Of a stretch of 64,000 nt of DNA, positions 139 through 48,489 are shown piece by piece. This DNA comes from an uncultured Candidatus Saccharibacteria bacterium (GTDB lineage Bacteria; Patescibacteriota; Minisyncoccia; Phycocordibacterales; UBA918): the NCBI GenBank assembly GCA_964350645.1, contig CAYGJY010000002.1, forward strand, positions 246,431 through 310,430, read 5' to 3'. A program made the position numbers and the translations under genes. The notes under the pieces were generated by a model that did not search any database, had not been told where the DNA came from, and was given only the letters and a program-made list of their open reading frames with translations. Numbering within the stretch: position 1 is the first letter of the stretch; each line of letters begins with the position of its first letter.

Positions 139-333
139 CTATATAAAATCATTACCGGCACCGAAGCAGTACCAGGCTAGGTTTCGCATCATGGTGTCAG
201 CATCCGTGTAGTGGTGGTCGCCGTTGATTTCAATATACAAGCCAGCTGAGTCTATTGAGAGGTCGATATGTTTGTGCCCATCCCACTTTTCAATTTCGAT
301 CAAATCGCAACTGTGCAATGATGAGTGAAGCAA
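139..333 (-). pseudogene. Possible DUF559/Vsr-like endonuclease-domain remnant (64 aa).
   Basis: Translation has '..YIEINGDHH..DADTMMRNLAWYCFGAG' resembling the DUF559 core (IELDGxxH ... D..R...L...G) but lacks ~50 N-terminal residues; overlaps ygjV-like stop by 44 nt. Confidence 0.25.
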
Positions 334-805
334 TAATCACAACCTGCACCAAGAGGGTCGGCATCGAATCAATCATAATAGCGTACGGCGCCCAAAGGAG
401 CGGGCCAACGTAACTCAAGATTCTGATCTGCTTTGGGTCATCGGCCCAGAGTGCAAAGGTCGAGGCGGTCACTGCTATTGCAGGCAAGAGGCTGTACCAG
501 CCTTGCCAAAAATAAAGAGAGGCTACTACAAGTATGGCAGAAAAAACATATGGCCAAAGATAATGACTTAAGGCAGGGTAGGTGGCTTTGTGACGAAAGA
601 CTAAGTTCCGCACGATCGTTGTGCCGTTGGCAAACGCTCCTGCCAGCGCACCAAGTAGTATTTGATGTGAAGCGAGTAGCACCATCCCGATAATAAGTGA
701 GGTGAGGATTTTAATCCGATCATTAAATTGATACGAAATAAAAATCGTCGCTACGGCAGCGTAGCCAAGTAGTTGTGTGAGGAGGGGAATATCACTGTCA
801 AACAT
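290..805 (-). CDS. YgjV-like polytopic inner-membrane protein (171 aa).
   Basis: Hydrophobic multi-TM ORF; clear paralog of the two tandem ORFs at 23417-24440, with shared N-terminal motif (VISQ.LVG.AF) and C-terminal 'SYWRFYIRK'. Confidence 0.5.
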   Translation of the reverse strand: MFDSDIPLLTQLLGYAAVATIFISYQFNDRIKILTSLIIGMVLLASHQILLGALAGAFANGTTIVRNLVFRHKATYPALSHYLWPYVFSAILVVASLYFWQGWYSLLPAIAVTASTFALWADDPKQIRILSYVGPLLWAPYAIMIDSMPTLLVQVVIIASLIIAQLRFDRN

Positions 806-883
806 ACAGTAATGGTATCACTTACCTCTTGCTAGTTTTTAATATAACTGTATTGTATGGAGAGAAAAAGGGGGGGGTAGCCC

Positions 884-1216
884 ATGGATAAGATTACTCG
901 ACTCTTTCGCCAGCCCGAAGAAGAAGGTCTTGACTACGATCTCCCGCATATCATCAGGGAGATTGAGGCTGCCGACATGGACAACGATGCAGCTTTTCAC
1001 GACATGATGCGTGCGTTGTATGAGGGCGAATCGGGCGAGAGCCTGATGGACCGCCTCGGAATCGCGATCTCGTTTCGTCTCTCTAATTCCACAATGGAGA
1101 GGTATGTGCAAGGTCTTTCTGCGCCACGGTACCTGAAGCGAAAGCAGGATATGCGAGACGCAATCGTGGCTGCTTTGAAACGAGCAGACGCAGATCTTCG
1201 GTCGGCGGGGCACTAG
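884..1216 (+). CDS. Hypothetical protein (110 aa).
   Basis: Intact ORF with GGGG-rich RBS region and a GGCTGC-TTCG-GCGGCC tetraloop hairpin terminator right after the stop. Confidence 0.4.
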   Translation: MDKITRLFRQPEEEGLDYDLPHIIREIEAADMDNDAAFHDMMRALYEGESGESLMDRLGIAISFRLSNSTMERYVQGLSAPRYLKRKQDMRDAIVAALKRADADLRSAGH

Positions 1217-1323
1217 GCTGCTTCGGCGGCCTTTTGCTTTGTAGATGGTGGAGAAATGTTGAACGGGCGTCGCCAGACGCCCGTTTTGCTTGCTGGTTTG
1301 GGGGATTGGGGTACACTCACTTT

Positions 1324-1965
1324 ATGAATCGTCTTGATATTCCATATGTAGGAAACTCGGGGCAAGCCTGCGCACTGGCCTGCTATACGATGGTCGCCAA
1401 GTACTTTTTTCCAGAAGTCACGTTTGAAGAAATTGGAGAGGTCTCACGTTGGAAGCAGGGGTATGCAGTATGGGAGATGCCATTCTGGAACTGGATCATG
1501 GAGCGAGGGGTTAGCGTTACCGACTATGACGTCATTGACTACCAAGCTTGGGCTGAGCAGGGTCTCTCTGGCCTAAAAAGCTCAGTCCCAGAGAAAGAGT
1601 TCATCTACTACGAGACACACACCCACAACCTAGATTCTTATACGGCAGATATTCAAGCGGCGGTACAAAATCCACATTTCACCCAACACAAACGCAACCC
1701 GACGTGGGACGATTTACTCTTCCAGTACAACAACGGCGCTGTTTGTGCTGCCGTGCTCGACGCCCGTACTCTTGATAATGCTGAAGGGTTTGATCTGCAT
1801 CAGGTTGTCGTATTAGATATAACTGACAATGAAATCACTTTCCATGACCCGAGAGGAGATGGAAAGGAACGGCCCCGTCGAACAGAAACACACGAACATT
1901 TCAAACGGGCCTGGCTGGAGGTTGTTGCTGCGCCATCGCTGTGTGCTTACAAGAGTGTTGGGTAG
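1324..1965 (+). CDS. Peptidase C39-like (papain-fold cysteine peptidase) domain protein.
   Basis: 'GNSGQACALACYTMV' (Q...C nucleophile region) and downstream 'DLHQVVVLDITDNEITFHDP' His block typical of Peptidase_C39_2; start trimmed to ATG 1324 from ORF 1234-1965. Confidence 0.5.
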   Translation: MNRLDIPYVGNSGQACALACYTMVAKYFFPEVTFEEIGEVSRWKQGYAVWEMPFWNWIMERGVSVTDYDVIDYQAWAEQGLSGLKSSVPEKEFIYYETHTHNLDSYTADIQAAVQNPHFTQHKRNPTWDDLLFQYNNGAVCAAVLDARTLDNAEGFDLHQVVVLDITDNEITFHDPRGDGKERPRRTETHEHFKRAWLEVVAAPSLCAYKSVG

Positions 1966-2030
1966 GTACTGACCGGGGCGTCGCTAGGCGCCCGTTTTGC
2001 TTGCTGGTTTTGGTGGTTGGGGTATAGTTT

Positions 2031-4418
2031 TTGAAAATGAAAATGTTTGAATTCAAAGGTATAAATTTTGAGAGCATAAAACTGAGTGTTGGTTCACTTG
2101 TTGGTGTTGGTAAAATTTTTCATAAAGAAGAGCACCAAGACAACCGGAAAATTCAACTAGAGCAAACGTCGCAAACCTACATAGCGAACCAGCTCAACCT
2201 CAGTCTTGAAGGCTTGACCCCAGAACAACAAACTGACCTCATTCAGAGTGCGTTGGGGAAAAAAGAACAGAATGACTCGGAGGTACTCGAGCCTCCAAAA
2301 GCTCAGACAACAGAGCCACTACCTCAACCAACTGAAGAAAGTGGTACTGAAAAATTCCTCAAGCAACGTTTGGAAGACTACAAAAGCAACCCTGAGTTGT
2401 TGCTTGATAGAGGTGCTTTATTGTCTGTATACACCGATCGAGAGAAGATTGGCTTTTCTGAAGAAGAGCTAGTTTTTCTTGTACAGTCTTCTATAAAAAA
2501 CGAGTTTCCCATTTGGTATTGGTCTTTCTACCAACGAGAGAACTTCGAAAGCGTCTCACCTATGTTCAAAAATGCGTATGCACATGAATCACTGAAAATA
2601 CGGTGTGGCGTGATCGAAGCTCTCACAAGTTTTTCTGACACGAGTGATGACATCATTGAATTGTGTGAGTCCGAAAGGAACCCTAAGGTTCTTGGATATG
2701 CAGCATCTGCATTTGCACGCAAAAAAGACTATCCAAGGCTTCAAAGAGTAGTGGCCAATGCACTTACTCGACGTATTGTGCCTGAGTTGACCGAGGAAGG
2801 GCGAGGACTGTTGAATAAGATCAGTATTGACCTTGGTGCGGCGGAACGACGTTTTTTGTGTGAAAAAATTGAGAATGGGTGGACTGAAGAAAAGATTTTG
2901 TCTTTAGGAATTCTTAGTACTTCTGCTGAAGAATCTGATTTGGAAACCCTTGAAAAATTTGTTGGAACATCTCTATTTATACGAGCTGAAGAGCTGGTGC
3001 TTTTGTGCATTGCAAAAATTGGTAAAACAACTAAGGCAGACAAAATTGAAAAAGAACTGCTTGAAACCAACAGGATTGAAACTTTCTATGCAGCACTTGA
3101 TGTTTTGGTGAAAATAAACTACGAGCCACTCTTTGATCAACTGCTTGAATGGCTTGGAAAAGCAGAGCGAATATCAGGAAGATTTTGGGGTGAGGTTGAT
3201 GACAGTAAAATCAAAGATAACATCCAAGACTCCTTGCTAGAGCTATTGAATGAGAAGAACTACAATAAATTTGTCGAGTATATCTTGGACAATTACGATG
3301 CTGACTATCGTGGAAACATCTGGAGCTGGCGTCATTTTTGGGTACTCAGAATGGCTTGTAAAAAGTCGGGGCTTCGCGACTTTATAAAGAAAGAAAAACG
3401 TCTCGTCGATTTTGAAAAATGGGCAGATGTAAAAGCTGAGCTGATTCAGGTGGAGGAAGTAGCGAAAGAAAGCCCCGATCAACTATTTGAAGCCGCAAAA
3501 GTCCAGACTTATAACAATAAACTTTTTATACTACGCAAGCTTTACACCCTGATCACTCCCGAGAAAGCCTTTGAAATGGCAGATCAATTTATTGAGGATC
3601 TACGCATAGACTTGAAACAACGCTTGAAAAAAGTGTCTGAGGAGGATCATCCAGAGGATGTAAAAAAGATCGCTGCAAATGATCTTGATAAATTCTTAGG
3701 TGAAAACCATTTCTTTTACCGCTTACAAAGGAAAAAGAAGAGGGGTAGACGTGCTGAAGATGAGGGCGAGAAAGATGTAGCCTTTGAGCAGCTCAGTGAA
3801 GACATTGATAAGTTCAATTACATTGAGAAAGAGTATCTCACGCACATTTTCAAAAGTGATGATAAGGTTATTCAGAAGAAACTCCTGGTTAGTATCGGGA
3901 GGCCTCATGAGTGCATATATGAGTCTCTGCAAACCTCAACGGGTGAGGTTGGTGCTCTTGAGCGCGCGCTAAATCAAGTCATCGTGTCTGACCCAAACAA
4001 GCTTCTCAAACTGAAGGCGATTGACGCGGCTTTGAGAATAGGAGTGTGTGAGAGAGCAGAATTACATTTGAAGACTCTTGAAATACTTGTGAACTCTAGG
4101 ACAATAGCTAAGGCACCACGAGGTGAAGATTATGATACTTGGTTTACGGGCGAGTTGACTTACGGCTGGGCAGTCAACACATTGAGTAAATTTGGTGATG
4201 TTATTGATTTCCCACTGATAAAAGAAGCTGAGAATCGTGAGAAAGTTATTTCACGCAGTTACCGACACTATGGTAGTTATCAAGATATTAGTGTTTTTGG
4301 TGAATTACTAGATTTGACTGAAATACTCGAAGACCCTGAGGATAAAGGAAACACTTTCTCTACTCTTGAGGATCTTGATTATAGATGGTCGAAAAAGATT
4401 TTGGGCATAGAAGATTGA
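2031..4418 (+). CDS. Large hypothetical protein (795 aa) with HEAT/PBS-lyase-like repeats; AT-rich.
   Basis: Long intact ORF; repeated 'E.NPKV...AA.AL' helical-repeat segments; noticeably lower GC than neighbouring core genes. Confidence 0.5.
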   Translation: MKMKMFEFKGINFESIKLSVGSLVGVGKIFHKEEHQDNRKIQLEQTSQTYIANQLNLSLEGLTPEQQTDLIQSALGKKEQNDSEVLEPPKAQTTEPLPQPTEESGTEKFLKQRLEDYKSNPELLLDRGALLSVYTDREKIGFSEEELVFLVQSSIKNEFPIWYWSFYQRENFESVSPMFKNAYAHESLKIRCGVIEALTSFSDTSDDIIELCESERNPKVLGYAASAFARKKDYPRLQRVVANALTRRIVPELTEEGRGLLNKISIDLGAAERRFLCEKIENGWTEEKILSLGILSTSAEESDLETLEKFVGTSLFIRAEELVLLCIAKIGKTTKADKIEKELLETNRIETFYAALDVLVKINYEPLFDQLLEWLGKAERISGRFWGEVDDSKIKDNIQDSLLELLNEKNYNKFVEYILDNYDADYRGNIWSWRHFWVLRMACKKSGLRDFIKKEKRLVDFEKWADVKAELIQVEEVAKESPDQLFEAAKVQTYNNKLFILRKLYTLITPEKAFEMADQFIEDLRIDLKQRLKKVSEEDHPEDVKKIAANDLDKFLGENHFFYRLQRKKKRGRRAEDEGEKDVAFEQLSEDIDKFNYIEKEYLTHIFKSDDKVIQKKLLVSIGRPHECIYESLQTSTGEVGALERALNQVIVSDPNKLLKLKAIDAALRIGVCERAELHLKTLEILVNSRTIAKAPRGEDYDTWFTGELTYGWAVNTLSKFGDVIDFPLIKEAENREKVISRSYRHYGSYQDISVFGELLDLTEILEDPEDKGNTFSTLEDLDYRWSKKILGIED

Positions 4419-4531
4419 GCCGTTAGCAGCAGAAGAAGCAAGGATAAAACAGCGTTGTGAGTGTGGTGTTTTTAGTGTTTGCTGTACTTTCGAGTTGAAA
4501 AAAATCACCAATTGACTTTTCGGAGTGATAA

Positions 4532-5110
4532 TCAATAAATCTTTTCCTTCTTCTTAAACATTTCGAGGTATTTTTCGGCGCGACGTTGCCGAGTCTCTTC
4601 TTTCTTTGCGCTCCGCAAGTTGTAGACGACTGAGTAGTGGTTGGCTTTGTTGAGGGTTTTGAAAAATGCGTAGGACTCTGGGTCTTTCTTAAGCTTCGTG
4701 ATGAACCAGGTCGGGACGGTCATGTTCTTCGGTGAGTCATACGCCGCGGCGAAGCGGCCGTCTTTCTTGGCTCGCTCGACTTCGGCGAGTCCTGGCGCTT
4801 TCATCTTTTTGTTTTTAATGAGGGTTTCTACGATCTCACGATTGATCTTTGACCAGGTGCTCCGGGGCCGACGCTTGGAGAATTTTATGAAGTAGTACTG
4901 CTCGTTGTGTTTGTTGATGAGTCCGTCGATCCAACCATAGCATAGCGCCACTTCACGCGCTTCTTCGTAGGTAAGGGAAGTAGCTCCGGTGCCTTTCTTG
5001 GCGAACTGAAGCCAGATACTGGCCGGTTGCTCAAAGTTTGACCGTAGCCACTTCGCAAAGTCAGCTTGTTTCTTGAAGTGATGAACGGCCAAGCCTTTGT
5101 GGGATTTCAT
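4532..5110 (-). CDS. YdeI/OmpD-associated family protein (DUF1801/DUF1905-like).
   Basis: 'WLQFAKKG...LTYEEAREVALCYGWIDG' N-terminal signature of the YdeI family plus lysine-rich C-terminus. Confidence 0.55.
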   Translation of the reverse strand: MKSHKGLAVHHFKKQADFAKWLRSNFEQPASIWLQFAKKGTGATSLTYEEAREVALCYGWIDGLINKHNEQYYFIKFSKRRPRSTWSKINREIVETLIKNKKMKAPGLAEVERAKKDGRFAAAYDSPKNMTVPTWFITKLKKDPESYAFFKTLNKANHYSVVYNLRSAKKEETRQRRAEKYLEMFKKKEKIY

Positions 5111-5252
5111 ACAGGTATTGTACCAATCTAGGTGGCTATGTATCTATGTTTATACTTCAAACATTCATCATAAAATTAGTAAAATTTATGTTGAAAACAG
5201 AACGACCACCAGAGGCGGTCGCCTGCAGGTGGTCTTGATGTGGTTTGCGCTC

Positions 5253-5486
5253 TTACCGGCGCTTTACCTTACGCGCTCTTTTGAGCTTTTTCTTCAGCTT
5301 CTTCCGCGCTCCCTCGTCGCCTTTGAGGCCCTCCGCTTCCGTAAGCAGTTCGAGAACCTGGCCCTCCAGATCTTGAAGGTCGCACGCCAGGGCATAGAGG
5401 CCCAGGCCTACCTTGTCAGGAATAGCGTTGATGCGATTCCAGAATTCCTCTGACTTCTCGCCAGAGTAAACCGTCCGGGCTTTCAT
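5253..5486 (-). CDS. Small basic hypothetical protein (77 aa).
   Basis: ORF trimmed to ATG preceded by AGGAGAA SD (revcomp of 5487-5500); lysine/arginine-rich C-terminus; hairpin terminator downstream (5195-5235). Confidence 0.4.
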   Translation of the reverse strand: MKARTVYSGEKSEEFWNRINAIPDKVGLGLYALACDLQDLEGQVLELLTEAEGLKGDEGARKKLKKKLKRARKVKRR

Positions 5487-5664
5487 GTGTTTTCTCCTTG
5501 CCGGTGTTTGTATGGGTCTTATACCACATGAATAATACCTTGTCACTATTAAGGAAAACGGGGTCAGCCACTATTTACTCAATACAAAAATGCAATTCAG
5601 AAATCTTTTAGCTGAAATGGACTGTAAAAACTTCAAGAGCTAATTCTTTTGGTATGATTAACCT

Positions 5665-6090
5665 ATGTCCAAATCTGCACATAAAACAGTGCCACGCAAA
5701 GTGTCGGTGACAGAATATATCAAATCGTTGCCGGCGGCAGAGCAAAAAGATGCCAAAGCATTATTAAAGCTTTTTAAAACGGTTACCACTATGAAGCCCG
5801 TCATGTGGGGAAACATGATTGGCTTTGGTTCCTACCACTACAAATACGACTCAGGCCGGGAAGGAGATTTTTTTGCCACTGGCTTTGCGCTTCGTAAAAG
5901 CGGGCCGACGATTTATATCATGCCTGGGTATCAGGACTACGGTGCGATTCTCAAAGATCTAGGTCCACACAAGTTAGGGAAGTCATGTCTGTATCTCAAG
6001 ACTCTTGATGAAATTGACCTCAAGGTACTGAAGAAATTAATTAAAACTGGCCTCAAAGATTTACGAAAAGTGTATCCGGTGAAGAAATAA
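5665..6090 (+). CDS. DUF1801 (YdhG-like) domain protein.
   Basis: 141 aa ORF with typical DUF1801 layout ('VTEYIKSLP...ALLKLFK...'); carries the shared upstream motif (5612-5639). Confidence 0.55.
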   Translation: MSKSAHKTVPRKVSVTEYIKSLPAAEQKDAKALLKLFKTVTTMKPVMWGNMIGFGSYHYKYDSGREGDFFATGFALRKSGPTIYIMPGYQDYGAILKDLGPHKLGKSCLYLKTLDEIDLKVLKKLIKTGLKDLRKVYPVKK

Positions 6091-6207
6091 AAAACTGACT
6101 CCATTGAGTCGGTTTTTTGTGTGGAGCAATCAGTAGAAATACACAGTGCATGTGAAGTTATAAACAGGTACCTTGCATTGCATAGTACCTTATGATAATA
6201 TTCTGCT

Positions 6208-6582
6208 ATGACTGATTCATCAGCAAAAGAAGAAAATAAATATAATGTCGAGAACGCCCAGTCACAGATGCGCAAAGGATTTCTAGAATTTCCGGTTCTG
6301 CTCATCATTGCAGCGAAGGCGACCTATGCCCCTGATATTCTCAAGCAACTTAAGAAAGCCAACTTGCTTGTAGTCGAGGGCACGCTCTATCCGCTCTTGT
6401 CACGTTTGAAGCGGTTCGCGCTTGTCGAATACGAGTGGCAGGAAAGTAAGAGTGGGCCACCGCGCAAAATGTATTCCATCACTCCCGAAGGGAAGGAGGT
6501 GCTAGCTCAACTTGAAGGGTCGTGGCAGTCGCTCGATGAATCAATGACCATGCTTATTAAGAAATCAGACACTAAGAAGTAA
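6208..6582 (+). CDS. PadR family transcriptional regulator.
   Basis: 'EGTLYPLLSRLKR...E..W.....RKMYSITPEGK' winged-helix PadR signature. Confidence 0.7.
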   Translation: MTDSSAKEENKYNVENAQSQMRKGFLEFPVLLIIAAKATYAPDILKQLKKANLLVVEGTLYPLLSRLKRFALVEYEWQESKSGPPRKMYSITPEGKEVLAQLEGSWQSLDESMTMLIKKSDTKK

Positions 6583-6584
6583 TT

Positions 6585-7814
6585 ATGAAAAAAGTAATCA
6601 ACATCACCCTTGGCAGTATCGTGTTTGCCATCGAGCAAGAAGCCTACGAGATTCTCGCTTCGTACTTAGAGAGTATCAAGCACAACATCGCTGACAACGA
6701 CGATGCGGCTGAAATTGTAGCCGATATCGAACGCGCCATTGCTGAAAAATTCCTCGCTCGTAAGCGAAGTGAAAAGGTGGCGGTAACAAGCGAGGATGTC
6801 TCGGTCGTTACTACAGAGATGGGTAGTCCAGCCGACTTTAGTGAAAGCGATGTGAAGGTAGGAGGTGAGAGCGACCAGGATGAAGCCCAGGCTACAACTC
6901 CACCAGTCGCACCCGAGTCAGAAACAAAAAAGCGACTATACCGCGATACTGATGACGCTATCATTGCGGGTGTAGCCTCTGGTTTGGCACGATACTTTGA
7001 TATTGATCCAGTGATTGTCCGGGTGCTATTCATCGTGGCTGTCTTCTTCAACGGGTTAGGTATATTGGCGTATATCGTTCTTTGGCTCGTCGTACCAGCT
7101 GCTGAAACAACTGCCCAAAAATACGCCATGCGTGGTGAGCGCGTGACTGTCGAGCAAATAACCGAGCGAGTAAAACGGAAAATCGGCGAGGTAGATACCG
7201 ACGCACTCAAAGATGGTGCAAAAAGTACCTGGGGTGGTCTGCGGCCAGTCTTGGTGAAGTTTTTTGAAGTAATCGGAATACTGGTCAAAGCGTCTTTGTC
7301 TGTTCTTAGGTACGTTGTTGGTTTTGCATTTTTGATCGGAGGGGCACTCTCGGTTGCAGGTATGGTGTCGGTATACAGTATTGTCCTGCTTTCAGACCGG
7401 GTGTTGCTCCCAGCAGACGCTCAGGTGGCTGTCGATACCATGCTCAGTAGTGCTCTGGGAATAGTTGCTATCTCAGCTTCGTTTATCATGATGTTCGTTC
7501 CGTTTCTGGTACTGATTTTGGCTGGCGGTAGTATGGTAGCCAAGAGAAACATGTTCACCGTGTCGAAAAGCATCACCTTGGCAGTCGTGTGGATTGTGGC
7601 GGTGGTTCTCGCTGGTACGACGTCAGTGCTGCAGCTAGAAAAAGTCATGTCCATTATAGATCCAGAGGGCTTTGAGCACGGTAGCTATGAGTTACCGATC
7701 GATAGTGATTACGATCCAGCAGAACCTGACACTGCCCCAGTGCCACCAGTAGAACAAGACGTGCCGAGCGCTCCGCCGGCTAGTGACCCGATTGATTTAC
7801 CGGTGGTTCAGTAG
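6585..7814 (+). CDS. PspC-domain membrane protein (stress-responsive), translationally coupled to padR.
   Basis: 'LYRDTDDAIIAGVASGLARYFDIDPVIVRVLFIV' PspC domain followed by several TM segments; ATG 3 nt after padR stop. Confidence 0.7.
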   Translation: MKKVINITLGSIVFAIEQEAYEILASYLESIKHNIADNDDAAEIVADIERAIAEKFLARKRSEKVAVTSEDVSVVTTEMGSPADFSESDVKVGGESDQDEAQATTPPVAPESETKKRLYRDTDDAIIAGVASGLARYFDIDPVIVRVLFIVAVFFNGLGILAYIVLWLVVPAAETTAQKYAMRGERVTVEQITERVKRKIGEVDTDALKDGAKSTWGGLRPVLVKFFEVIGILVKASLSVLRYVVGFAFLIGGALSVAGMVSVYSIVLLSDRVLLPADAQVAVDTMLSSALGIVAISASFIMMFVPFLVLILAGGSMVAKRNMFTVSKSITLAVVWIVAVVLAGTTSVLQLEKVMSIIDPEGFEHGSYELPIDSDYDPAEPDTAPVPPVEQDVPSAPPASDPIDLPVVQ

Positions 7815-7888
7815 GAGAGGTGGGTGCGTTCTATGAAAACACCTGTTGGGTGTTTTTCTCGTATGTGGAGCAGTTTAACTCAAGTTAA

Positions 7889-7949
7889 AACCTCTTTGAT
7901 TGAAATGGAGTGTGCGAACTTTCTGAAGGTAGTTGATCTGTGGTAGATG
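7889..7949 (+). repeat. ~60-nt conserved element, copy A: 'aacctctttgattgaaatggagtgt...gaaggtagttgatctgtggtagatg'.
   Basis: Direct sequence match to copy B at 8988-9048 (first 25 nt identical, remainder ~80% identical) and partial match to 5612-5639. Confidence 0.8.
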
Positions 7950-7995
7950 AAAGCCTTTAGTCTGACTACTTTCAAAGGTATACTGATCAATAACT

Positions 7996-8898
7996 ATGTG
8001 GCTTTTATATACATTCGGGTATGCCTTTGCTCAAGCGCTGGTTCTCTATGTCGATGAATACTTAAGTATCAGTAATGTTGTTACTGAATCTTCTAGTTCT
8101 CATAAACGCATTGGCGCGGTTTTGATCACTTCAGCATTAGTGGGATTTTTAGGTGCACTTGGTGTGTTTCTTTATCTTGGTGATGTAACAGCAACAACAT
8201 ATGTGATGACACTCAGTCTTTTGTCAGCAATACCAATGGTTACTGTATATGCTTCTTACTTTTACCTCTTACTCAACAACCCTTCGTATTTGATTGCACC
8301 GTTTTTCCAGTTCAGCGTAGTCTGGATGTTGCTGTATGAATTAGCACTAGGTGCAACGATTACTTTAGCTGGGTTACTTGGTATTTTCCTTTTGATTTAT
8401 GGAGTGTATATGCTCGATGTTAAATCTTTACGTTGGAAAATTCCAACTCGATTGCTCATGTACATGATACCTGCAAGTCTATTGTGGGCACTCGTAGTAA
8501 TAATGACACAAGCTGCCACACAAGAGGCTTCCGCGCAGGTTGTTGTCTTTTATCAAATGCTGGGCACTGGTTTTGTTGGTCTTGCGCTTCTCTTGTTCGT
8601 AAAACCGTATCGTGAGGGGCTGGTGTTCCGAATGAAAAACCAAGGCAAGAGCTTTATTGCTGCAAGCGTGGTGAACGAACTTTTTTGGCAAATCAGTCTT
8701 TTATTTGCAGTATTGGCAATTGCTTCGGCACCACTCGTTGCTTACTTTGGTGCTGCTGGTGGTGTACACAACCTTATAGTACTTGGACTATTCTTCCTCT
8801 TTCCTCTGCACGAACGTAATAAAATCACTTGGGTGCAAGTATTGGCGATAGCATTGATTATCTTTGGTATTTTTAGTATCGAATTTTGGCGAGTATAG
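7996..8898 (+). CDS. Polytopic membrane protein, function unknown (300 aa).
   Basis: Highly hydrophobic intact ORF, ~9-10 predicted TM segments. Confidence 0.5.
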   Translation: MWLLYTFGYAFAQALVLYVDEYLSISNVVTESSSSHKRIGAVLITSALVGFLGALGVFLYLGDVTATTYVMTLSLLSAIPMVTVYASYFYLLLNNPSYLIAPFFQFSVVWMLLYELALGATITLAGLLGIFLLIYGVYMLDVKSLRWKIPTRLLMYMIPASLLWALVVIMTQAATQEASAQVVVFYQMLGTGFVGLALLLFVKPYREGLVFRMKNQGKSFIAASVVNELFWQISLLFAVLAIASAPLVAYFGAAGGVHNLIVLGLFFLFPLHERNKITWVQVLAIALIIFGIFSIEFWRV

Positions 8899-8941
8899 GT
8901 AAAAGTAAAGAAGCTTACTCTCTCGAGCAAACTTCCATATT

Positions 8942-8970
8942 CTTCTATATATTTCCATGTTTGGTGGAAG
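8942..8970 (+). repeat. Imperfect direct repeat of the ssrA (tmRNA) 3' end plus flank; att-like.
   Basis: 'cttctatatatttccatgtttggtggaag' matches 10007-10035 'cttctagatatttccatgtctggtggaga' at 26/29 positions; the latter is the tmRNA 3' terminus (revcomp UCUCCACCA). Confidence 0.6.
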
Positions 8971-8987
8971 ACTTTGTACCAAGTAAG

Positions 8988-9048
8988 AACCTCTTTGATT
9001 GAAATGGAGTGTCCTAATTTCCTTAAGGTTGTTGAGTTGTGGTAAATT
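8988..9048 (+). repeat. ~60-nt conserved element, copy B (upstream of SRPBCC gene).
   Basis: See copy A; contains plausible sigma70-like -35/-10 (tttcct-N19-taaatt). Confidence 0.8.
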
Positions 9049-9055
9049 TAAATAT

Positions 9056-9496
9056 ATGCAAAAAATGCACTTTTCAATCACAATAGACGCACCAAAGGAA
9101 AAAGTGTGGGACACCATGCTTGAAGACGCTACTTATAGAGAGTGGACTAAAATATTTGAGCCGGGATCTCACTATGAAGGAAGCTGGGAAGAAGGTTCAG
9201 AAATAAAATTTTTCTCAGCAGACGAAAAAATGGTTATGTACAGCCGTATTAAAGAGAATCGTCTTCATGAATATGTTTCTATCGAACATATCGGAATAAT
9301 AAAAGATGGTGTTCTCGATACTACCAGTGACGAAGTTAAAAAATGGGCTCCGTCATACGAAAACTACACTTTTACCACCACCGATAATGGTACTGAACTA
9401 TCAGTTGATATAGACATAAATGATGAGTACAAAACTTCGTTTGAAGAAATGTGGCCCAAAGCGCTTGAGGTTTTGAAAGCCTTAGTAGAAAAATAG
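9056..9496 (+). CDS. SRPBCC-fold protein (AHSA1/activator-of-Hsp90-ATPase-like).
   Basis: 'HFSITIDAPKEKVWDTMLEDATYREWT' START/Bet-v1-like N-terminus; start trimmed to ATG 9056. Confidence 0.6.
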   Translation: MQKMHFSITIDAPKEKVWDTMLEDATYREWTKIFEPGSHYEGSWEEGSEIKFFSADEKMVMYSRIKENRLHEYVSIEHIGIIKDGVLDTTSDEVKKWAPSYENYTFTTTDNGTELSVDIDINDEYKTSFEEMWPKALEVLKALVEK

Positions 9497-9520
9497 CACA
9501 GTTTCTCTTCAATTTAATAC

Positions 9521-9973
9521 ATGATAGAAATTAAAAAAATAACTCTAGAGGATAATTTCGACGAAATAGTTGATGCTATTAAGAATTCTTCTTGGGCTGA
9601 GAAGTCAGAAATTGATCCAAGTGACTATTCCTTCGAACATATCGAAGAATCACTGAGACAAGACGATCATCTTTTTTGCATTGCCTACCATGATGGTCAG
9701 TTCGGTGGTATGGCCTCAGCGTTTGCTCTCACGAAGCCTGATGGAGACAAGTGGTTATATGTTAATGAAGTTGATGTACCAATAGAGAAGCAAAGGAGAG
9801 GTGTTGGTACTGAGTTGATGAAGTTTCTGAAAGCAGAGGGAAAAAGACTTGGGTGTATAGAGATGTGGCTTGGTACTGAAAAGGACAATACTGCCGCGAA
9901 TGCACTCTACAATTCTTTAGAACCAACAGAGGTAGAAGAATTTGTTGGTTACACATACAAATTCAAGTTATAG
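9521..9973 (+). CDS. GNAT acetyltransferase, aminoglycoside 6'-N-acetyltransferase (AAC(6')-I)-like.
   Basis: GNAT motif A 'QRRGVGTELM' and C-terminal 'GCIEMWLGTEKDNTAANALYNSL' resembling AAC(6')-I family 'GCREMASDTSPENT...'. Stem-loop terminator 9981-10004. Confidence 0.55.
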   Translation: MIEIKKITLEDNFDEIVDAIKNSSWAEKSEIDPSDYSFEHIEESLRQDDHLFCIAYHDGQFGGMASAFALTKPDGDKWLYVNEVDVPIEKQRRGVGTELMKFLKAEGKRLGCIEMWLGTEKDNTAANALYNSLEPTEVEEFVGYTYKFKL

Positions 9974-10027
9974 ACAAGAAAACCGCCTCAAAGGCGGTTT
10001 TCTATTCTTCTAGATATTTCCATGTCT

Positions 10028-10419
10028 GGTGGAGATGGGGGTATTGAAACCCCGTCCGAATTAATCTGCCGTTGTGCGTCTACAGTGTGTAGTCGTTTCT
10101 TTGATTTAAAGTAGTGGCCTAAAGAAAAGACAAAACAATCACTACTCGAGTTGCTGCATCTTGGGCACTTGGCACAACCGACCAAGTTTCCACAGTCTGA
10201 TGTTTATTCCACCCGTACTACCTTACCAGACATGGGGTAGACGAGCGTCGTACCGGCGAGCGAGTGGTTACGCTACAGCGGGTGCGAATCCGAACGCGTT
10301 AGCGTACGGACTTGGTACAGATTTGTTTGCATCTATACGTAGCCGCCTTTTAACGAATGGCGGCCAATTTCGACACTGCACACAATGACAACAACTAACC
10401 GTCGATGCCTAGCATCCCC
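10028..10419 (-). ncRNA. ssrA: tmRNA (ssrA), ~392 nt.
   Basis: Minus-strand 5' GGGGAUGCUAGGCAUCGAC and 3' ...GGACGGGGUUUCAAUACCCCCAUCUCCACCA (tRNA-like end, acceptor pairs with 5' end); internal tag ORF GCA AAC AAA ... GCU GUA GCG UAA = ANKSVPSPYANAFGFAPAVA*; smpB adjacent. Confidence 0.75.
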
Positions 10420-10547: not shown

Positions 10548-10997
10548 TTAGTTTTGACTTTTCAAAATACGATCGATGTCTCGTTTATTGTCGCGAGCCT
10601 TAAGCGCTTCACGCTTGTCGGCTTTCTTCTTACCACGACCAATACCAATTTCGAGCTTCAACTTTCGGCCCGCATTATACAATCGAATTGGCACTATTGT
10701 CAAACCAGCTTGCTCACTTTTTTCTTCGAGCTCCTTCAGTTCTTTTTTTGATAAAAGCAGCTTACGAACCCTTTCTGGCTCATAGTCTTTCGGCATGTTG
10801 GCTGGTTGATAGGGAGCAACCGAGCTGTTTACTAAGAAAGCCTCACTGCCGCGAATAAGAACGTGGGCTCCGTCGAGCTTCGCTCGGCCGGTTTTGATGG
10901 ATTTTACCTCATAGCCAGCCAGTACTAAACCCGCCTCGAAGGTGTCGAGGATCTCATAATCAAAGCGGGCCTTTTTGTTACTGATGAGGTTACTCAT
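10548..10997 (-). CDS. smpB: SsrA-binding protein SmpB.
   Basis: 'KKARFDYEIL...EAGLVLAGYEVKSIK' canonical SmpB N-terminus, 149 aa. Confidence 0.9.
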   Translation of the reverse strand: MSNLISNKKARFDYEILDTFEAGLVLAGYEVKSIKTGRAKLDGAHVLIRGSEAFLVNSSVAPYQPANMPKDYEPERVRKLLLSKKELKELEEKSEQAGLTIVPIRLYNAGRKLKLEIGIGRGKKKADKREALKARDNKRDIDRILKSQN

Positions 10998-22048: not shown

Positions 22049-22121
22049 CCGCCTGTAGCTCAGTTGGTAGAGCGCGAAGCTTATACCTTCGTGGTCCCAG
22101 GTTCAAGTCCTGGCGGGCGGA
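22049..22121 (+). tRNA. tRNA with anticodon UAU (Ile, AUA-decoding type).
   Basis: Cloverleaf: acceptor CCGCCTG/CGGGCGG (T6:G wobble), D-arm TAGCTCAGTTGGTAGAGC, anticodon stem CGAAG/CTTCG with loop CTTATAC, T-arm CCAGGTTCAAGTCCTGG; Ile-like backbone. Confidence 0.7.
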
Positions 22122-22135
22122 CTAGTTTCAGTAAT

Positions 22136-37825: not shown

Positions 37826-38920
37826 ATGGCCTTTGATTTTAAGAAAATCTTTTCTTCATTAAAAAACTCTGTTCCTCAAGTCCCCAAGCGGGTGATGGGG
37901 ATTGATATTGGTTCGTCATCGATTAAGGTGGTTGAGGTAGAACAGACTGATGTGGCGCTGACTCTACGCACCTATGGTGAATTGCAACTTGGTCCTTATG
38001 CTGACAAGGACTTGGGTGAAGCTGTTACGCTTGAGCCCCAACGCCTCACTGAAGCGGTGGTTGATGTGATGCGTGAGTCAGGCGTACAAGCGACTTCAGG
38101 TGTTTTGGCGCTGCCGCTGGGAGCTAGTTTTGTGACGGTTGTGCCGATTTCAGTGACTGCAACTGAAGACATTGATTCTAAGATTAGAGTTGAAGCACGA
38201 AAGTATATTCCGGTACCACTATCTGAAGTTATTTTAGATTGGTCTGAACTCGATCAATATGGAGATAAAAATAGCCAGGTACATGAAGTATTATTGGCTG
38301 CAATTCAAAGTGAGGCATACAGGCGGTATCAAAAATTAATGAGTGATGTTGGCTTGGCTTCTGAACCAGCTGAGATAGAGCTTTTTAGTACTGTGCGCGG
38401 GATTTTTAGACCAGAAGACACCACAATTGGAATTATTGATCTTGGTGCACAAACGAGCAAACTTTACATTGCTGCTGAGGGAAATCTTGAACGTATCCAT
38501 CGCGTGTACGAAGGAGGGGCTGCGTGTACCAAACGCATCTCTAAGATGCTGTCCGTTTCTTTTAGAGAAGCTGAGATTATGAAGCGAAATTACACACCAG
38601 GTGATGCGGCCGGTGAAGATATAAAAAAAGCCTATAGCAGCACTATCGAGCGTTCGGCACAAGAATTTAAGCGAGTTATTGAACAGTATGAAGCCCGTAA
38701 AGGGGCACCGCTTGGGCGAGTAGTTATTACTGGTGGTGCGGCTGCATTCCCTGGAGTTGAAGCTCACCTAAGTGATTTATTTTCCCGAGATGTTGTTAAG
38801 GTACGACCGTTTGGCAAGTTGGCTTATCCAGCTTTTATGGAAGATACGTTACAAGAAGCTGGCTTGTCATTTGCGCCAGCGCTTGGTGCCGCTATCAGAC
38901 CTTTTTATTTAAACAACTAA
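37826..38920 (+). CDS. pilM: Type IV pilus assembly protein PilM (actin-like ATPase fold).
   Basis: 'VMGIDIGSSSIKVVEV' N-terminal actin-fold motif, 364 aa. Confidence 0.85.
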   Translation: MAFDFKKIFSSLKNSVPQVPKRVMGIDIGSSSIKVVEVEQTDVALTLRTYGELQLGPYADKDLGEAVTLEPQRLTEAVVDVMRESGVQATSGVLALPLGASFVTVVPISVTATEDIDSKIRVEARKYIPVPLSEVILDWSELDQYGDKNSQVHEVLLAAIQSEAYRRYQKLMSDVGLASEPAEIELFSTVRGIFRPEDTTIGIIDLGAQTSKLYIAAEGNLERIHRVYEGGAACTKRISKMLSVSFREAEIMKRNYTPGDAAGEDIKKAYSSTIERSAQEFKRVIEQYEARKGAPLGRVVITGGAAAFPGVEAHLSDLFSRDVVKVRPFGKLAYPAFMEDTLQEAGLSFAPALGAAIRPFYLNN

Positions 38921-38978
38921 ACTACCTGTCCACAAGGAACACGATAATGTTTTTTAGTTTCGCGTATAATTATTAGTA

Positions 38979-39725
38979 ATGGATAGTTCTCCGAGTGGAT
39001 CTTTTATACCAAAACGAAATGTGGCTCACCAACCACGCCGACCTGTTGGGAAGCGGATTTATCTGTTCAGCTATGTTGCGTACACGTTCTTTTTTGGGAC
39101 ATTACTCGGGGTGGTAGGTATTTTCTTTTTAAATCAACAAGCAGATAAAAAACTTAATGAAACCATAGCTTTAGTTAGTGTCGCACAGGCCGATTTCGAC
39201 CGGGAACAAATCAAAGAAATTACTGATATTGATGCTCGCATTCGATTGGCAAAGCAAGTACTTGATGCACATGTAACCTTACGATCAGTCTTTGCGGGAT
39301 TGGAAAGTTCGGTAGTTGAATCTGTTCAGTTTTCTTCATTTGGGTATACATATAATGATGGAGAACCAGTCAAAATAAAACTTGAAGCTTCAGCACCAGA
39401 TTTTGATACCATTCTATTCCAACGAGAAATGCTAGCTGGAAGTTTACTGTTTAGCGATGCCCAGTTCAGTGAAATAATGTATGGAACTGCCGCGAATGAG
39501 TCTGAGGATACAGAAGAAATTTCTAGTGAAGTGAGATTTGTGATTGAAGCATCTATACCAGTTGCTGATTTAGCGTATCAGCCGCTGAACCCTGAGAGGG
39601 CAGCACCAGTTATAGAAACTGAGGTGTTTGATGAAATAAATGTGGAGGGAAGTGAAGAAATTGAAGAAATTAATGAAGCAGCAGCAGAGATCAGAGCTGA
39701 TATTAGTAATCAAGAAAATCTCTAG
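38979..39725 (+). CDS. PilN-like bitopic pilus-assembly protein with acidic C-terminal tail.
   Basis: Single N-terminal TM 'IYLFSYVAYTFFFGTLLGVVGIFFL', position between pilM and pilO-like. Confidence 0.5.
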   Translation: MDSSPSGSFIPKRNVAHQPRRPVGKRIYLFSYVAYTFFFGTLLGVVGIFFLNQQADKKLNETIALVSVAQADFDREQIKEITDIDARIRLAKQVLDAHVTLRSVFAGLESSVVESVQFSSFGYTYNDGEPVKIKLEASAPDFDTILFQREMLAGSLLFSDAQFSEIMYGTAANESEDTEEISSEVRFVIEASIPVADLAYQPLNPERAAPVIETEVFDEINVEGSEEIEEINEAAAEIRADISNQENL

Positions 39726-39728
39726 TTT

Positions 39729-40307
39729 ATGGGCGCTCGAACTACAATTCAGATAGCATTGATCGTTATTTCGATCATTATTATAGCTACTTTTATTAAT
39801 CCGAAATTTCAAGTATTAAAAGCAACTCAAGACGAAACTGTGGAATATCAAGAGGCGCTTGATAATGCAAATTCATTTCAATCTGAGCTGCAACGTTTAC
39901 AGACTCAAGTTGATAGTTTTTCTGCCACTCAGTTGTCTGCTCTTGAAACGTATTTGCCTGACACTGTTGATCCAGTAGTAGTAATGCGTGACTTGGCAGC
40001 AATCGCAGAGCAAGTCGGTTTGGATGTGACTTCATTAGCAACTGCTGAGGGATTTGAATCGAGAAGTGCTAATTCAGTCGCTGCACAGGGTCAAGCATTT
40101 GAGGAGGAAAGATCATCAGTGACTCTAGCCACTACTCAAGTGAGTTTGGGTGTGATCGGAGACTATGAACAGCTTAAAAATTTTCTCAACTTTGTTGAGC
40201 AAAACAAGTACCCTCTTCGCGTGACTGCAATGAGCTTTACGGCAAGTGGAGATGTATTGTTTTCAGTCGAATTTACTATTGAAACCTATTCCTTAGCAAC
40301 ATCATAA
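39729..40307 (+). CDS. PilO-like pilus-assembly protein.
   Basis: N-terminal TM, coiled-coil 'ELQRLQTQVDSF', gene order. Confidence 0.5.
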   Translation: MGARTTIQIALIVISIIIIATFINPKFQVLKATQDETVEYQEALDNANSFQSELQRLQTQVDSFSATQLSALETYLPDTVDPVVVMRDLAAIAEQVGLDVTSLATAEGFESRSANSVAAQGQAFEEERSSVTLATTQVSLGVIGDYEQLKNFLNFVEQNKYPLRVTAMSFTASGDVLFSVEFTIETYSLATS

Positions 40308-40309
40308 CT

Positions 40310-40603
40310 ATGACACCTTTTGTAAAAAACGGCCTTATACTCCTCGGCATTCTCGTCATTGGCGGTTTGGGTTATTACTTATTCGTTCTTAATAGTGATG
40401 CTGATCTAGTCGTTTCTACGACAACTACAAATGCCGCGCAATTAGCAAGTGAACAATTCTTGCGTGAGCTCAATACTATTAAGACGGTTAATTTGTCAGG
40501 TGACTTATTTTCAGATCCGCGTTTCCTATCCTTGACTGATTTCTCAGAGCCATTGGTTGAGAAGTCAGTTGGTCGAAATAACCCTTTCTTCCTGGCGCAA
40601 TAG
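40310..40603 (+). CDS. Small bitopic membrane protein in pilus operon (PilP-like position).
   Basis: TM 'GLILLGILVIGGLGYYLFVL'; translationally coupled. Confidence 0.4.
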   Translation: MTPFVKNGLILLGILVIGGLGYYLFVLNSDADLVVSTTTTNAAQLASEQFLRELNTIKTVNLSGDLFSDPRFLSLTDFSEPLVEKSVGRNNPFFLAQ

Positions 40604-40606
40604 CGT

Positions 40607-42400: not shown

Positions 42401-42409
42401 TGTATTTAT

Positions 42410-42775: not shown

Positions 42776-42784
42776 TAGTTATAT

Positions 42785-43855: not shown

Positions 43856-43857
43856 AT

Positions 43858-45066: not shown

Positions 45067-45243
45067 GAAAATAAGAAGTCCGCAAAGCGGACGGCTATAT
45101 GTCCTTAAGCATTCTTGTCCACACCTCGTCACCGTTTCATTATAGTTCTACGTATAATTATAGGTAAACCCTGTAACGTAGGGCAGTCTATCGAAGCAAA
45201 CAGCTGTGGCTTCGATGGAAATCATTAATAAATAAAAGTTTTT

Positions 45244-45708: not shown

Positions 45709-45806
45709 AGTTTTACGTACAAACAAAAAAAGCGCCTTTTGGCGCTTTTTTTGTTTGTACAGTATGTTCGGCGCCTGCGGCGCCGAACATACTGTACAAT
45801 TAAGCA

Positions 45807-47244: not shown

Positions 47245-47246
47245 AT

Positions 47247-48485: not shown

Positions 48486-48489
<4 letters not shown>
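47869..48489 (+). CDS. Pseudopilin / minor pilin 3.
   Basis: 'DGYSLVEALVAISILLIAIV' prepilin-like signal; Cys-rich globular domain. Confidence 0.65.

Follow-up and report, generated by a model that had tools for sequence, protein, structure and literature searches.

A probable tandem array of recombinase-less mini-cassettes at the ssrA 3' end of a Patescibacteria genome

Patescibacteria have tiny genomes with few recognised mobile elements, and their exchange of accessory genes is poorly understood. In staphylococci, the 3' end of rlmH (orfX) carries composite islands made up of SCC elements and ccr-less pseudo-SCC units. The ssrA islands of Dehalococcoides are arranged in tandem with a 20-bp bounding repeat and with DsiB beside ssrA on the reverse strand, and 15 of 31 islands are without an integration module (PMC3146451). 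The link to CcrB of SCC is cited in the same study. Here we analyse a 64-kb stretch of Patescibacteria DNA, referred to as the window, and regard its ssrA locus as a new miniature form of ssrA-targeted tandem islands.

As in Dehalococcoides, the units are found in tandem downstream of a single-copy ssrA, have ssrA or a short directly repeated piece of its 3' end as their border, and carry additional conserved sequence next to the repeat. Approximately half of the Dehalococcoides units lack an integration module and have been proposed to be cis-mobilizable, and the units here are integrase-less as well. In two relatives (L008 and L019) a large serine recombinase lies beside ssrA on the reverse strand; in L019 it is accompanied by a second, small one, which resembles the pair of DsiB and DsiA. 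In contrast to the Dehalococcoides islands of ~10 kb or more, the units here measure ~0.4-3.5 kb (median 0.9 kb) and hold one or two genes, and 0 of 58 cassettes contain an integrase. The identity block within ssrA comprises 5-7 nt instead of 20 bp, the crossover is located at the extreme 3' end and not in the T-loop, and the junction repeat is ~145 nt long with a coding signature in one arm. The host, too, is different, i.e. a Patescibacteria lineage.

Integrons and CALINs likewise comprise rows of small, mostly one-gene cassettes with a conserved recombination site of ~60-140 nt in between, and their arrays may also be found without a nearby integrase. Integrons are also similar in that cassettes are inserted at one fixed end and often carry toxin-antitoxin pairs, GNATs and small proteins of unknown function. 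Unlike integrons, the locus has no IntI-type tyrosine recombinase or attI and uses the ssrA 3' end as docking site; its junction is conserved in sequence and is not an imperfect palindrome of the attC type, its cassette ORFs are not co-oriented, and each cassette brings a terminator for the adjacent tmRNA. The comparison with SCC extends to cassettes that accrete in tandem at the 3' end of an essential single-copy gene, some of them without recombinase genes, to a replacement 3' end for the target supplied by the element and, as proposed here, to serine-recombinase logic. It ends at the target, which is an RNA gene, at the size of the units, which are ten to fifty times smaller, and at the ccr-like genes, none of which were seen in the X-family arrays described below. 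The tRNA/tmRNA-targeted islands as defined by Islander/TIGER and cis-mobilizable accretion elements are comparable in having an intact target at one end and a displaced 3'-end copy at the other, and in being polymorphic between strains and atypical in composition; here, in contrast, the unit contains no integrase, the displaced fragment is very short and the size is cassette-like. In the streamlined genomes of Prochlorococcus, flexible genes likewise form tandem modules beside tRNA/tmRNA genes, with partial repeats of the target on their flanks. The recombinase families and the site structure are different there and, to our knowledge, neither a conserved 145-nt junction nor a coding arm has been described. 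These modules comprise the tycheposons and the tRNA-flanked cargo modules of Prochlorococcus islands (bioRxiv 10.1101/2020.12.28.424599).

The docking site of the array is ssrA, a complete target gene that borders the insert on one side. It is flanked by SmpB and FtsH and encodes the tmRNA tag ANKSVPSPYANAFGFAPAVA. The anatomy and the unit boundaries can be followed directly along the + strand of the window, where each unit consists of a core GTGGA, an X arm of 85 nt, one or two cargo genes in either direction, an A arm and the next core (Table 1). Conserved A-core and core-X sites, which look like functional att sites, are present on both sides of each unit. Three junction types occur in the window, namely A to tmRNA (10003-10033), A to X (8902-9046) and flank to X (7862), the internal one adding up to ~145 nt of A arm, core and X arm.

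Table 1. Features of the ssrA locus, in window coordinates.
Feature	Position	Strand	Description
smpB	10548..10997	minus	Pfam SmpB 169 bits; just upstream of ssrA
ssrA (tmRNA)	10027..10419	minus	ARAGORN; Rfam RF00023, 110.6 bits, model positions 1-374 of 374
Core copy 1	10027-10033	+	TGGTGGA; last 7 nt of ssrA, complement of UCCACCA
A arm, proximal cassette	9977..10026	.	hairpin terminator 9977-10003 and 24-nt spacer with TTCYATRT-type repeats, then core
GNAT acetyltransferase, 150 aa, cargo	9521..9973	+	generic; not AAC(6') by curated models
SRPBCC/AHSA1-like protein, 146 aa, cargo	9056..9496	+	Pfam AHSA1 24.5 bits (cut-off 22.1)
X arm, SRPBCC-GNAT cassette	8961..9046	+	nhmmer 77.8 bits
Core copy 2	8962-8968		TGGTGGA; start of X arm, SRPBCC-GNAT cassette
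A arm, EamA-like cassette	8902..8961	.	hairpin and three phased TTCYATRT repeats
Terminator hairpin in EamA-cassette A arm	8909-8936	minus	relic tmRNA terminator
Membrane protein, 300 aa, second-cassette cargo	7996..8898	+	weak EamA match, Pfam 24.7 bits, below 28.2 cut-off
X arm, EamA-like cassette	7862..7946	+	nhmmer 75.2 bits; frame MWSSLTQVKTSLIEMECANFLKVVDLW, then stop
Core copy 3	7865-7869		GTGGA; in X arm, EamA-like cassette
PadR + PspC unit	6208..7860	+	PadR 6208-6582, PspC-domain protein 6585-7814, terminator 7838-7860
Decayed X + DUF1801 unit	5575..6090	+	X ~5575-5640, encodes ..RNLLAEMDCKNF..; DUF1801 gene 5665-6090

At least two cassettes are intact, one with the EamA-like gene and one with the SRPBCC and GNAT genes, and all lie downstream of ssrA. 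For the SRPBCC/AHSA1-like protein no relative was found among solved structures. The terminator noted next to the ssrA end is indeed present; a terminator scan calls this hairpin on the + strand, the match of the A model covers 9979-10033, and in our judgement its symmetry would allow it to act for ssrA too. The X arm of the SRPBCC-GNAT cassette contains a start-less frame at 8965-9046, WWKTLYQVRTSLIEMECPNFLKVVELW, closed by a stop. Further out, the PadR-PspC and DUF1801 units are probably two decayed cassettes, likewise downstream of ssrA. Of these, the PadR-PspC unit is probably an older cassette. In L121 this pair of genes forms a cassette bounded by X and A beside ssrA, and a decayed core/X (GTGGAGCAATCAG) begins near 6122, after a terminator at 6097-6110. 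The DUF1801 unit is probably the oldest recognisable one. Its decayed X is a weak match (tblastn E = 0.37), and DUF1801 genes are also found within or beside arrays in L097 and L134.

The original prediction described the SRPBCC-GNAT islet as an integration scar between direct repeats of the ssrA end, at 8942-8970 and 10007-10035. The repeat is real and encloses exactly the two genes named. We count 25 identical positions out of 29 where 26 had been claimed, and 29 out of 31 in the best register (8938-8968 versus 10003-10033). A 29-mer scan with up to three mismatches returns these two sites only, with 0.00 expected from 100 shuffles. The proximal copy does consist of the ssrA 3' terminus plus flank, with only 7 nt of the 31-nt repeat (10027-10033) within ssrA and the other 24 nt in the downstream flank. 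Core copies 2 and 3 are displaced copies of this 3' end. The GC content of the insert is 0.34-0.42 versus ~0.47-0.50 in the flanks, the dip spanning 7850-9800. A direct repeat including the ssrA end, a GC dip and the absence of an integrase would all be expected if one element had integrated at ssrA and decayed to two genes between att remnants, one of them an aminoglycoside 6'-acetyltransferase. A second repeat, missed in the original prediction (7865-7948 versus 8964-9047; 84 nt, 79% identity, 25 nt exact), directly adjoins the distal copy of the first, and the islet is thus one unit of a larger array. A solitary decayed element is already contradicted by this array structure, with an adjoining second cassette that has the same arms. 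It is further opposed by the full junction, which is 80-90% identical to junctions of unrelated metagenome arrays (L098, L124 and L128), by cassettes of ~0.9 kb being the rule in 58 cases, none with an integrase, by a toxin-antitoxin cassette that is conserved as a whole in 11 arrays or more, and by the low scores of the GNAT against all AAC(6') models. We consider it highly improbable. What stands is a site-specific insertion at the ssrA 3' end with a foreign-looking, strain-variable insert; what falls is its singleness, the islet being the ssrA-proximal member of a tandem array whose ~145-nt junction is common to many metagenomes. The SRPBCC-GNAT islet is likely to be the newest unit of this array of small recombinase-less cassettes.

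The identification of the GNAT as an AAC(6') aminoglycoside acetyltransferase was not borne out. Every AAC(6') model of NCBIfam failed (17-22 bits, cut-offs 140-300), and even the best scores, 33 bits for the RimI model against a cut-off of 86 and 32 bits for the AAC(3)-I model against one of 200, fall far short of threshold. RimI and AAC(3)-type enzymes are also the nearest solved structures in the PDB (E = 4e-5 to 1e-3), and homologues are labelled 'RimI-like' or 'GNAT family' in their sources. Judged by these matches, the islet acetyltransferase is a generic GNAT and no recognisable antibiotic-resistance enzyme. In practice, it ought not to be listed among resistance genes.

Using smpB as a conserved anchor for finding related loci, we detected X in 6 of 80 related species genomes, an unbiased sample. 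X is also present in 43 metagenome contigs. In the six genomes X lies downstream of ssrA wherever the tmRNA gene was detected. This wide recurrence is a direct observation and amounts to 102 X matches in 54 sources, with all X copies of a source on one strand and with the tmRNA gene convergent at the A end in 18 of 18 sources where it was found. Arrays reach up to six units. Viral contigs gave 0 matches to the X pattern. All + strand A matches that abut anything end at the core, followed by X or tmRNA; some arrays have no A arms, and there a plain terminator precedes X, which counts against the array model set out below. The 58 complete cassettes range from 435 to 3549 nt (median 894 nt) and contain 86 ORFs in 62 clusters, without bias in orientation (40 share the strand of X and 46 lie opposite). 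The same cassettes, i.e. toxin-antitoxin pairs, NUDIX, GNAT, glyoxalase and membrane proteins, recur in many metagenomes. In the literature searched, cassette arrays at the ssrA of Patescibacteria are not described.

Comparison of the ssrA loci of relatives revealed other cargo at the same place in a ~96%-identical strain. Three loci (L001, L004 and L005) with an SmpB protein 100% identical to that of the window hold one HigB(Gp49)/HTH toxin-antitoxin cassette where the window holds two cassettes; the backbone identity, measured on L001, is 95-96%. The arrangement of the window was assembled independently in L002 and L007. Thus, ~96%-identical strains differ by whole cassettes at one site. The toxin-antitoxin cassette, ~760 nt long, occurs in at least 11 arrays at varying positions and with 72-85% nucleotide identity. 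In nine of these arrays the identities of its own X and A arms follow the cargo identity (r = 0.40 and 0.69), in contrast to those of the neighbouring X and A (r = 0.04 and -0.29). L103 and L126 are 99% identical as far as ...TTGGTGGA and unrelated beyond, with the breakpoint exactly at the core. From these sequence comparisons, cassettes appear to move as whole units. The GNAT is partnered with DUF1801 and glyoxalase genes in L134, and the EamA-like homologue of the L098 cassette lies on the opposite strand relative to X; as the same cargo occurs with other partners or flipped between the same arms, it is also reshuffled by another process, a further point against the array model.

Such varied partners and orientations could point to the 145-nt block being a dispersed module, a terminator with a small gene or regulatory element, at which homologous recombination acts after DNA uptake with no site-specific recombinase. 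The copies are long and similar enough for this (80-90%), the type IV pilus/T2SS-like cluster of the genome could serve DNA uptake, no recombinase was found, and X resembles a small coding unit. A dispersed module does not explain why half-sites mark the array ends, an A arm alone beside ssrA and an X arm alone at the distal flank, why the L103/L126 breakpoint falls exactly at the core, or why the arms of a cassette co-vary with its cargo and the neighbouring arms do not. Moreover, X is seen only downstream of ssrA in one orientation and nowhere else in the window. We therefore regard exchange by homology alone as unlikely.

For the favoured array of site-specific cassettes, the chemistry of recombination, the enzyme behind it and any present-day mobility of the cassettes are inferred. 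A cassette would enter by site-specific recombination between its own A-core-X site and the ssrA 3' end UCCAC(CA), leaving this end intact and supplying a fresh terminator with its A arm. The earlier cassette would be pushed outward, and its old X arm together with the A arm of the newcomer would make up the ~145-nt internal junction. Because of this outward displacement at each insertion, the array would be left with two half-sites, A beside ssrA and X at the distal flank. The enzyme would act in trans. By analogy with related genomes it is most likely a large serine recombinase, with integrase-less units behaving as cis-mobilizable elements according to DsiA/DsiB or CcrAB-type logic.

A search of the 64-kb window and the arrays by motif regex, by Pfam on ~25 window ORFs, by annotation of neighbouring genes and by tblastn from three integrases returned no recombinase, and no tyrosine recombinase was found in the window. 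The window cassettes encode SRPBCC, GNAT and EamA-like proteins only, with no integrase within the island. Integrase-bearing elements are docked at ssrA in the relatives L008, L019 and L078. The large serine recombinases of L008 and L019 (~500 aa) have the domains Resolvase, Recombinase and Zn_ribbon_recom, and their genes are convergent with ssrA. The reading frames of these recombinase genes thereby cross the junction and stop 19 nt within ssrA. In the X-family array of L114 a 26-codon remnant of the 3' end of an L008-type recombinase is joined to the core of the first X. These elements and this remnant, together with the decayed X copies in the window, would be consistent with full-size islands or prophages that each carried an integrase, integrated repeatedly and then shrank, the cassettes never having been mobile as such. 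Independent decay would not repeatedly give the same compact unit of X, cargo and A, or a toxin-antitoxin cassette of ~760 nt in at least 11 arrays, and none of the 58 complete cassettes contains an integrase gene, whole or partial. Repeated shrinkage is thus very improbable. Two negative results count against the array model as well: no recombinase could be linked to this genome or to an array of the X family, and neither an excised circle nor an empty site was seen for this exact lineage. The normal reaction of large serine recombinases is restricted to attP and attB, so that repeated insertion at an attL-like site of tmRNA plus A is not automatically expected.

The locus shows a compact route of accessory-gene exchange with many traces in Patescibacteria. 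If the system is active, it could serve as a marker for strain-level variation in Patescibacteria, provide genetic tools for an uncultivated phylum in the form of a defined att site and candidate serine recombinases, and offer a small system, easy to handle, in which to study how cassettes accrete at an essential RNA gene.

X shows a strong protein-coding signature over 26 codons and has no start codon (example peptide TSLIEMECPNFLK). This signature is not accounted for by the array model. Conservation of X is lowest in codons 1-8, nearest the core; this would be unusual in an arm bound by a recombinase and also counts against the model. A structured RNA or attC-like hairpin was rejected, as RNAalifold with 53 unique copies gave ~0 kcal/mol and no consensus fold on either strand; matches to Rfam were sub-threshold noise only. 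An origin of X as the C-terminal end of a genuine protein, be it an integrase, a target gene or a sorting tag, was rejected too, and no parent gene was found. A word-index search with the X peptide returned four small ORFs, and an exhaustive profile search of 1.84 billion representatives gave 24 matches, comprising incidental ORFs of 29-141 aa and one unrelated repeat protein; the two longest-looking fusions (P0006 and P0024) are single contigs. No conserved gene lies upstream of the first X, where the neighbours vary (DUF1801, VOC, GNAT, NUDIX, acetate kinase). The A arm is kept as DNA and not as coding sequence, its frame relative to X shifting by ±1 nt in about one third of the junctions, and a stop codon is found at the core in some A to X junctions. 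Read-through from upstream cargo into X is in frame in 4 of ~12 cases, in our reading about chance. As the tail of L008-type recombinases X would, again in our reading, meet a stop after 3-10 codons, and this is therefore not its conserved frame.

A bolder possibility, which we put forward tentatively and hold to be rather doubtful, is an integron-like gene-capture platform at the ssrA 3' end of Paceibacteria-type Patescibacteria, in which ~0.9-kb recombinase-less cassettes would be exchanged via the ~145-nt site by a recombinase in trans, and X would be a functional start-less frame of 26 codons running from the crossover point. X might then act as a portable C-terminal and stop-codon module for a gene crossing the junction, or encode an unconventionally made peptide. 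Such a start-less, protein-constrained junction frame could point to an unrecognised coding arrangement. Finally, X was considered as a possible diverged copy of the ssrA 3' region, with which it shares in the window a significant 26-nt match at ssrA positions 72-96 from the 3' end (P <= 0.007). The match is weak or absent in most other loci, and 6 of 15 place TCTTTGRTTTAAA at the same spot.

The direct repeat at the ssrA 3' end is present, its best register pairing 8938-8968 with 10003-10033 at 29 of 31 positions, and a search with the 29-mer allowing up to three mismatches returned these two sites only (0.00 expected). The original prediction counted 26 identities in 29 for its own register, where we count 25, and described the sequence as the ssrA 3' terminus plus its flank; only the plus-strand TGGTGGA (10027-10033, the complement of UCCACCA) lies in ssrA, and the remaining 24 nt are downstream flank. 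Both predicted cargo genes and the terminator ahead of the ssrA end were found between the repeat copies. A second direct repeat, overlooked previously, adjoins the distal copy (7865-7948 and 8964-9047, 84 nt, 79% identical, 25 nt of it exact). We refer to the flank-side segment as the A arm and to the second-repeat segment as the X arm; they meet at a GTGGA core. The region comprises two tandem units with the same kind of ends: on the ssrA side there is an A half-site, on the distal flank an X half-site. Elements inserting one after another, site-specifically, at the 3' end of ssrA would leave such a trace. GC content is 0.34-0.42 over 7850-9800 and about 0.47-0.50 outside. Since the PadR-PspC pair forms an X/A-bounded cassette adjoining ssrA in the related locus L121, and decayed core/X sequence precedes both PadR (near 6122) and DUF1801 (5575-5640) in the window, the array is probably four cassettes deep.

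Features of the ssrA locus and plus-strand order of its units
Feature	Position	Strand	Detail
ssrA	10027-10419	minus	ARAGORN and Rfam
smpB			directly upstream of ssrA
SRPBCC/AHSA1 gene	9056-9496		between repeat copies
GNAT gene	9521-9973		between repeat copies
Hairpin terminator	9977-10003		between repeat copies
Distal unit		plus-strand order	PspC terminator, GTGGA, X1, EamA-like gene, A'
Proximal unit		plus-strand order	TGGTGGA, X2, SRPBCC, GNAT, A
ssrA end		plus-strand order	TGGTGGA, ssrA

The feature is widespread in one Patescibacteria lineage. A 22-base X pattern matched 43 metagenome contigs, eight of them twice, and had no match in viral contigs. A profile constructed from these matches detects 102 X copies in 54 sources, uniform in strand within every source, with up to six copies in one array (L098); in all 18 sources in which a tmRNA gene was found, that gene sits at the A end and converges on X. 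Among 80 species genomes collected via SmpB, and thus not selected for X, six contain X, downstream of ssrA wherever the tmRNA gene was detected; these genomes are catalogued as Patescibacteria (Paceibacteria/'Kaiserbacteria'-like). In the A arm, a terminator hairpin on the minus strand precedes three TTCYATRT repeats set at intervals of about 10 nt; the arm terminates at the core, after which comes X or the tmRNA; a few orphan A copies and a few A-less junctions are exceptions. The internal junction of the window (8902-9046) is 80-90% identical to those of three related loci (L098, L124, L128).

The cassettes were also assessed as mobile units. The 58 complete cassettes span 435-3549 nt (median 894) and carry one or two ORFs each, 86 in all, which fall into 62 clusters and show no orientation bias (40 versus 46). 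Their cargo includes Gp49/HTH toxin-antitoxin (TA) pairs, NUDIX, acyltransferase, DUF4386, phosphodiesterase, GNAT, glyoxalase, DUF1801 and PadR-PspC genes. At least 11 arrays contain the TA cassette, which occupies differing positions in them and shows 72-85% identity across its full X-to-A length. In nine TA cassettes cargo identity correlates with that of the cassette's own arms (r = 0.40 for X, 0.69 for A) and does not track that of the neighbouring arms (0.04 and -0.29). Moreover, loci L103 and L126 are 99% identical as far as TTGGTGGA and unrelated thereafter. Together, the cassette statistics, TA recurrence, arm-cargo correlations and this breakpoint place the limits of the units at the core, and on the same grounds we prefer site-specific recombination to homologous exchange inside the repeat as the explanation.

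The comparison of ssrA loci across relatives proposed with the original prediction shows differing cargo. Among close strains, i.e. contigs of the same sequencing project with 100% identical SmpB, L002 and L007 reproduce the window arrangement exactly, while L001, L004 and L005 carry one unit only between ssrA and the PspC gene, a Gp49/HigB-like toxin with an HTH antitoxin and its own X and A arms. Because these strains have a single TA unit in place of the window's two, with a common backbone 95-96% identical (measured on the window-L001 pair), cassette content varies among strains of about one species. L001, otherwise about 96% identical, has no counterpart of window 178-5696 (C39-peptidase-like, a 795-aa protein without Pfam match, OmdA/YdeI-like); response-regulator, SET-domain, PfkB and AdoHcyase genes stand in its place. 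This second strain-variable region begins beside the decayed X at about 5575. The tmRNA T-stem (window 10036-10050) shows a compensatory pair between window and L001 (GGGGG...CCCC versus GGCGG...CCGC), and the two also differ as to whether the gene encodes the terminal CCA (CCACCA, then GAC, versus CCAC, then ATAAAT).

The proposed AAC(6') identity of the GNAT did not hold: the protein matches Acetyltransf_1 (56.5 bits) but scores only 17-22 bits on AAC(6') NCBIfam models with cut-offs of 140-300. The scores for RimI (33 bits) and AAC(3)-I (32 bits) are a little higher and still far under those models' own cut-offs; among solved structures, RimI and AAC(3)-type enzymes come closest (E = 4e-5 to 1e-3). 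Homologues are named RimI-like or GNAT family in their sources. An 85% identical homologue occupies the ssrA-proximal cassette of L134 with glyoxalase and DUF1801 partners, not SRPBCC, and 66% identical homologues are located elsewhere in other genomes. The window protein belongs to the GNAT family without narrower assignment.

Searches of the cassettes, of the arrays and of the whole 64-kb window found no recombinase. In three related genomes (L008, L019, L078) a recombinase gene on the opposite strand converges on ssrA and ends with a stop codon 19 nt into the tmRNA gene, counted from the tmRNA 3' end. The enzymes of L008 and L019 are large serine recombinases (Resolvase + Recombinase + Zn_ribbon_recom), L019 having an additional small one upstream; that of L078 is a tyrosine integrase. 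An X-family array, L114, retains a 26-codon remnant of the L008-type 3' end fused to its first X core. In Dehalococcoides, the units of ssrA islands likewise stand in tandem and are delimited by a 20-bp ssrA repeat, with DsiB/DsiA serine recombinases adjoining ssrA on the reverse strand; 15 of 31 units lack an integration module and were suggested to be cis-mobilizable (PMC3146451). As the convergent serine recombinases, the L114 remnant and the tandem arrays match these islands, we file the islet by analogy as a miniature, integrase-less variant of this kind; among ssrA-targeted tandem islands it represents a new variant, of cassette size. The original observation stands and its interpretation was partly right. 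That a large serine recombinase acts on the window islet is our inference, possible but less likely than not.

The three recombinases are mutually unrelated (two serine, one tyrosine), yet all end in ..GDGG[N/D/S]*, the T-loop complement supplying the stop codon. The L008 gene lies between perfect 140-bp inverted repeats (7531-7670 and 9086-9225), each holding its last ~45 codons and the ssrA CCAC. The arrangement suggests a segment able to invert with the frame intact either way, or it may be an assembly artefact.

X was rejected as a structured RNA, no RNA structure having been found; it resembles plus-strand coding sequence. From core codons TGG TGG the frame reads W(K/S)(T/S)L(Y/L)(Q/E)V(R/K)TSLIEMEC(P/A)NFLK(V/I)VDLW, then a stop whose position is constant in 55 of 65 distinct copies (TGA 34, TAA 12, TAG 9). 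The synonymous share of codon differences is 39.5%, compared to 17.4 ± 3.5% (maximum 30%) in column shuffles, codon entropy ranks position 3 > 1 > 2, Leu-20 is encoded by TTG, CTT, CTG, CTA and CTC, and a ~45-nt insertion in some copies keeps the frame. No start codon is conserved among the X copies examined, the frame is not fixed in the upstream A arm, and no parent protein with the X C-terminus came up in a word-index search or in an exhaustive profile search across 1.84 billion proteins. Similarity to ssrA antisense is weak and inconsistent. X might provide genes that read across the junction, as recombinase genes of relatives do, with a portable C-terminus and stop codon, or it might be a peptide expressed unconventionally; we can only offer both as hypotheses. 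An in-frame insertion of ~16-18 codons in some X arms (L099, L107, L089, L093, L117, L126; protein P0004) encodes ..QVDLVFNDxxEYKNGNALVVKTSLIEMEC.. and is duplicated once. Its DNA shows a GTTTTTA/TAAAAAC hairpin, replaced by GAAAATA/TATTTTC in L117 and L125, so that peptide and hairpin constraints may both act on it.

A further element, E (~140-270 nt, 42 copies), occurs on the same strand as the tmRNA, either a short way downstream of ssrA or separating cassettes, in L009, L012, L017 (7466-7604), L021, L027 (4519-4703 and 4744-4898), L089, L091, L092, L096, L099, L103, L111, L122, L126, L134 and other loci; nhmmer found no match in the window. Its start, GTGGAGATGG-hairpin-CGGGAGTTGAA, is the tmRNA 3' end in reverse complement, and at its other end the final 15-20 nt of the tmRNA are repeated directly (...CCATCTCCACCA). 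RNAalifold predicts 44 pairs, 25 with compensatory changes, and Rfam gave no match; we regard E as a candidate for a new structured RNA closed by a tRNA-like stem. Like ssrA, it has cassettes docked at its 3' end.

Elsewhere in the window, genes resembling a type IV pilus/T2SS system cluster at 37826-49022 (PilM/FtsA-like, two T2SSE ATPases, T2SSF, prepilin peptidase, several N_methyl pilins), with DNA ligase and gatCA after them; the cluster might serve DNA uptake and in that way bear on cassette exchange. At 22049-22122 lies a tRNA-Ile gene whose anticodon is TAT (UAU), an uncommon bacterial way of reading AUA; the gene is also present in L001, L015 and L121.
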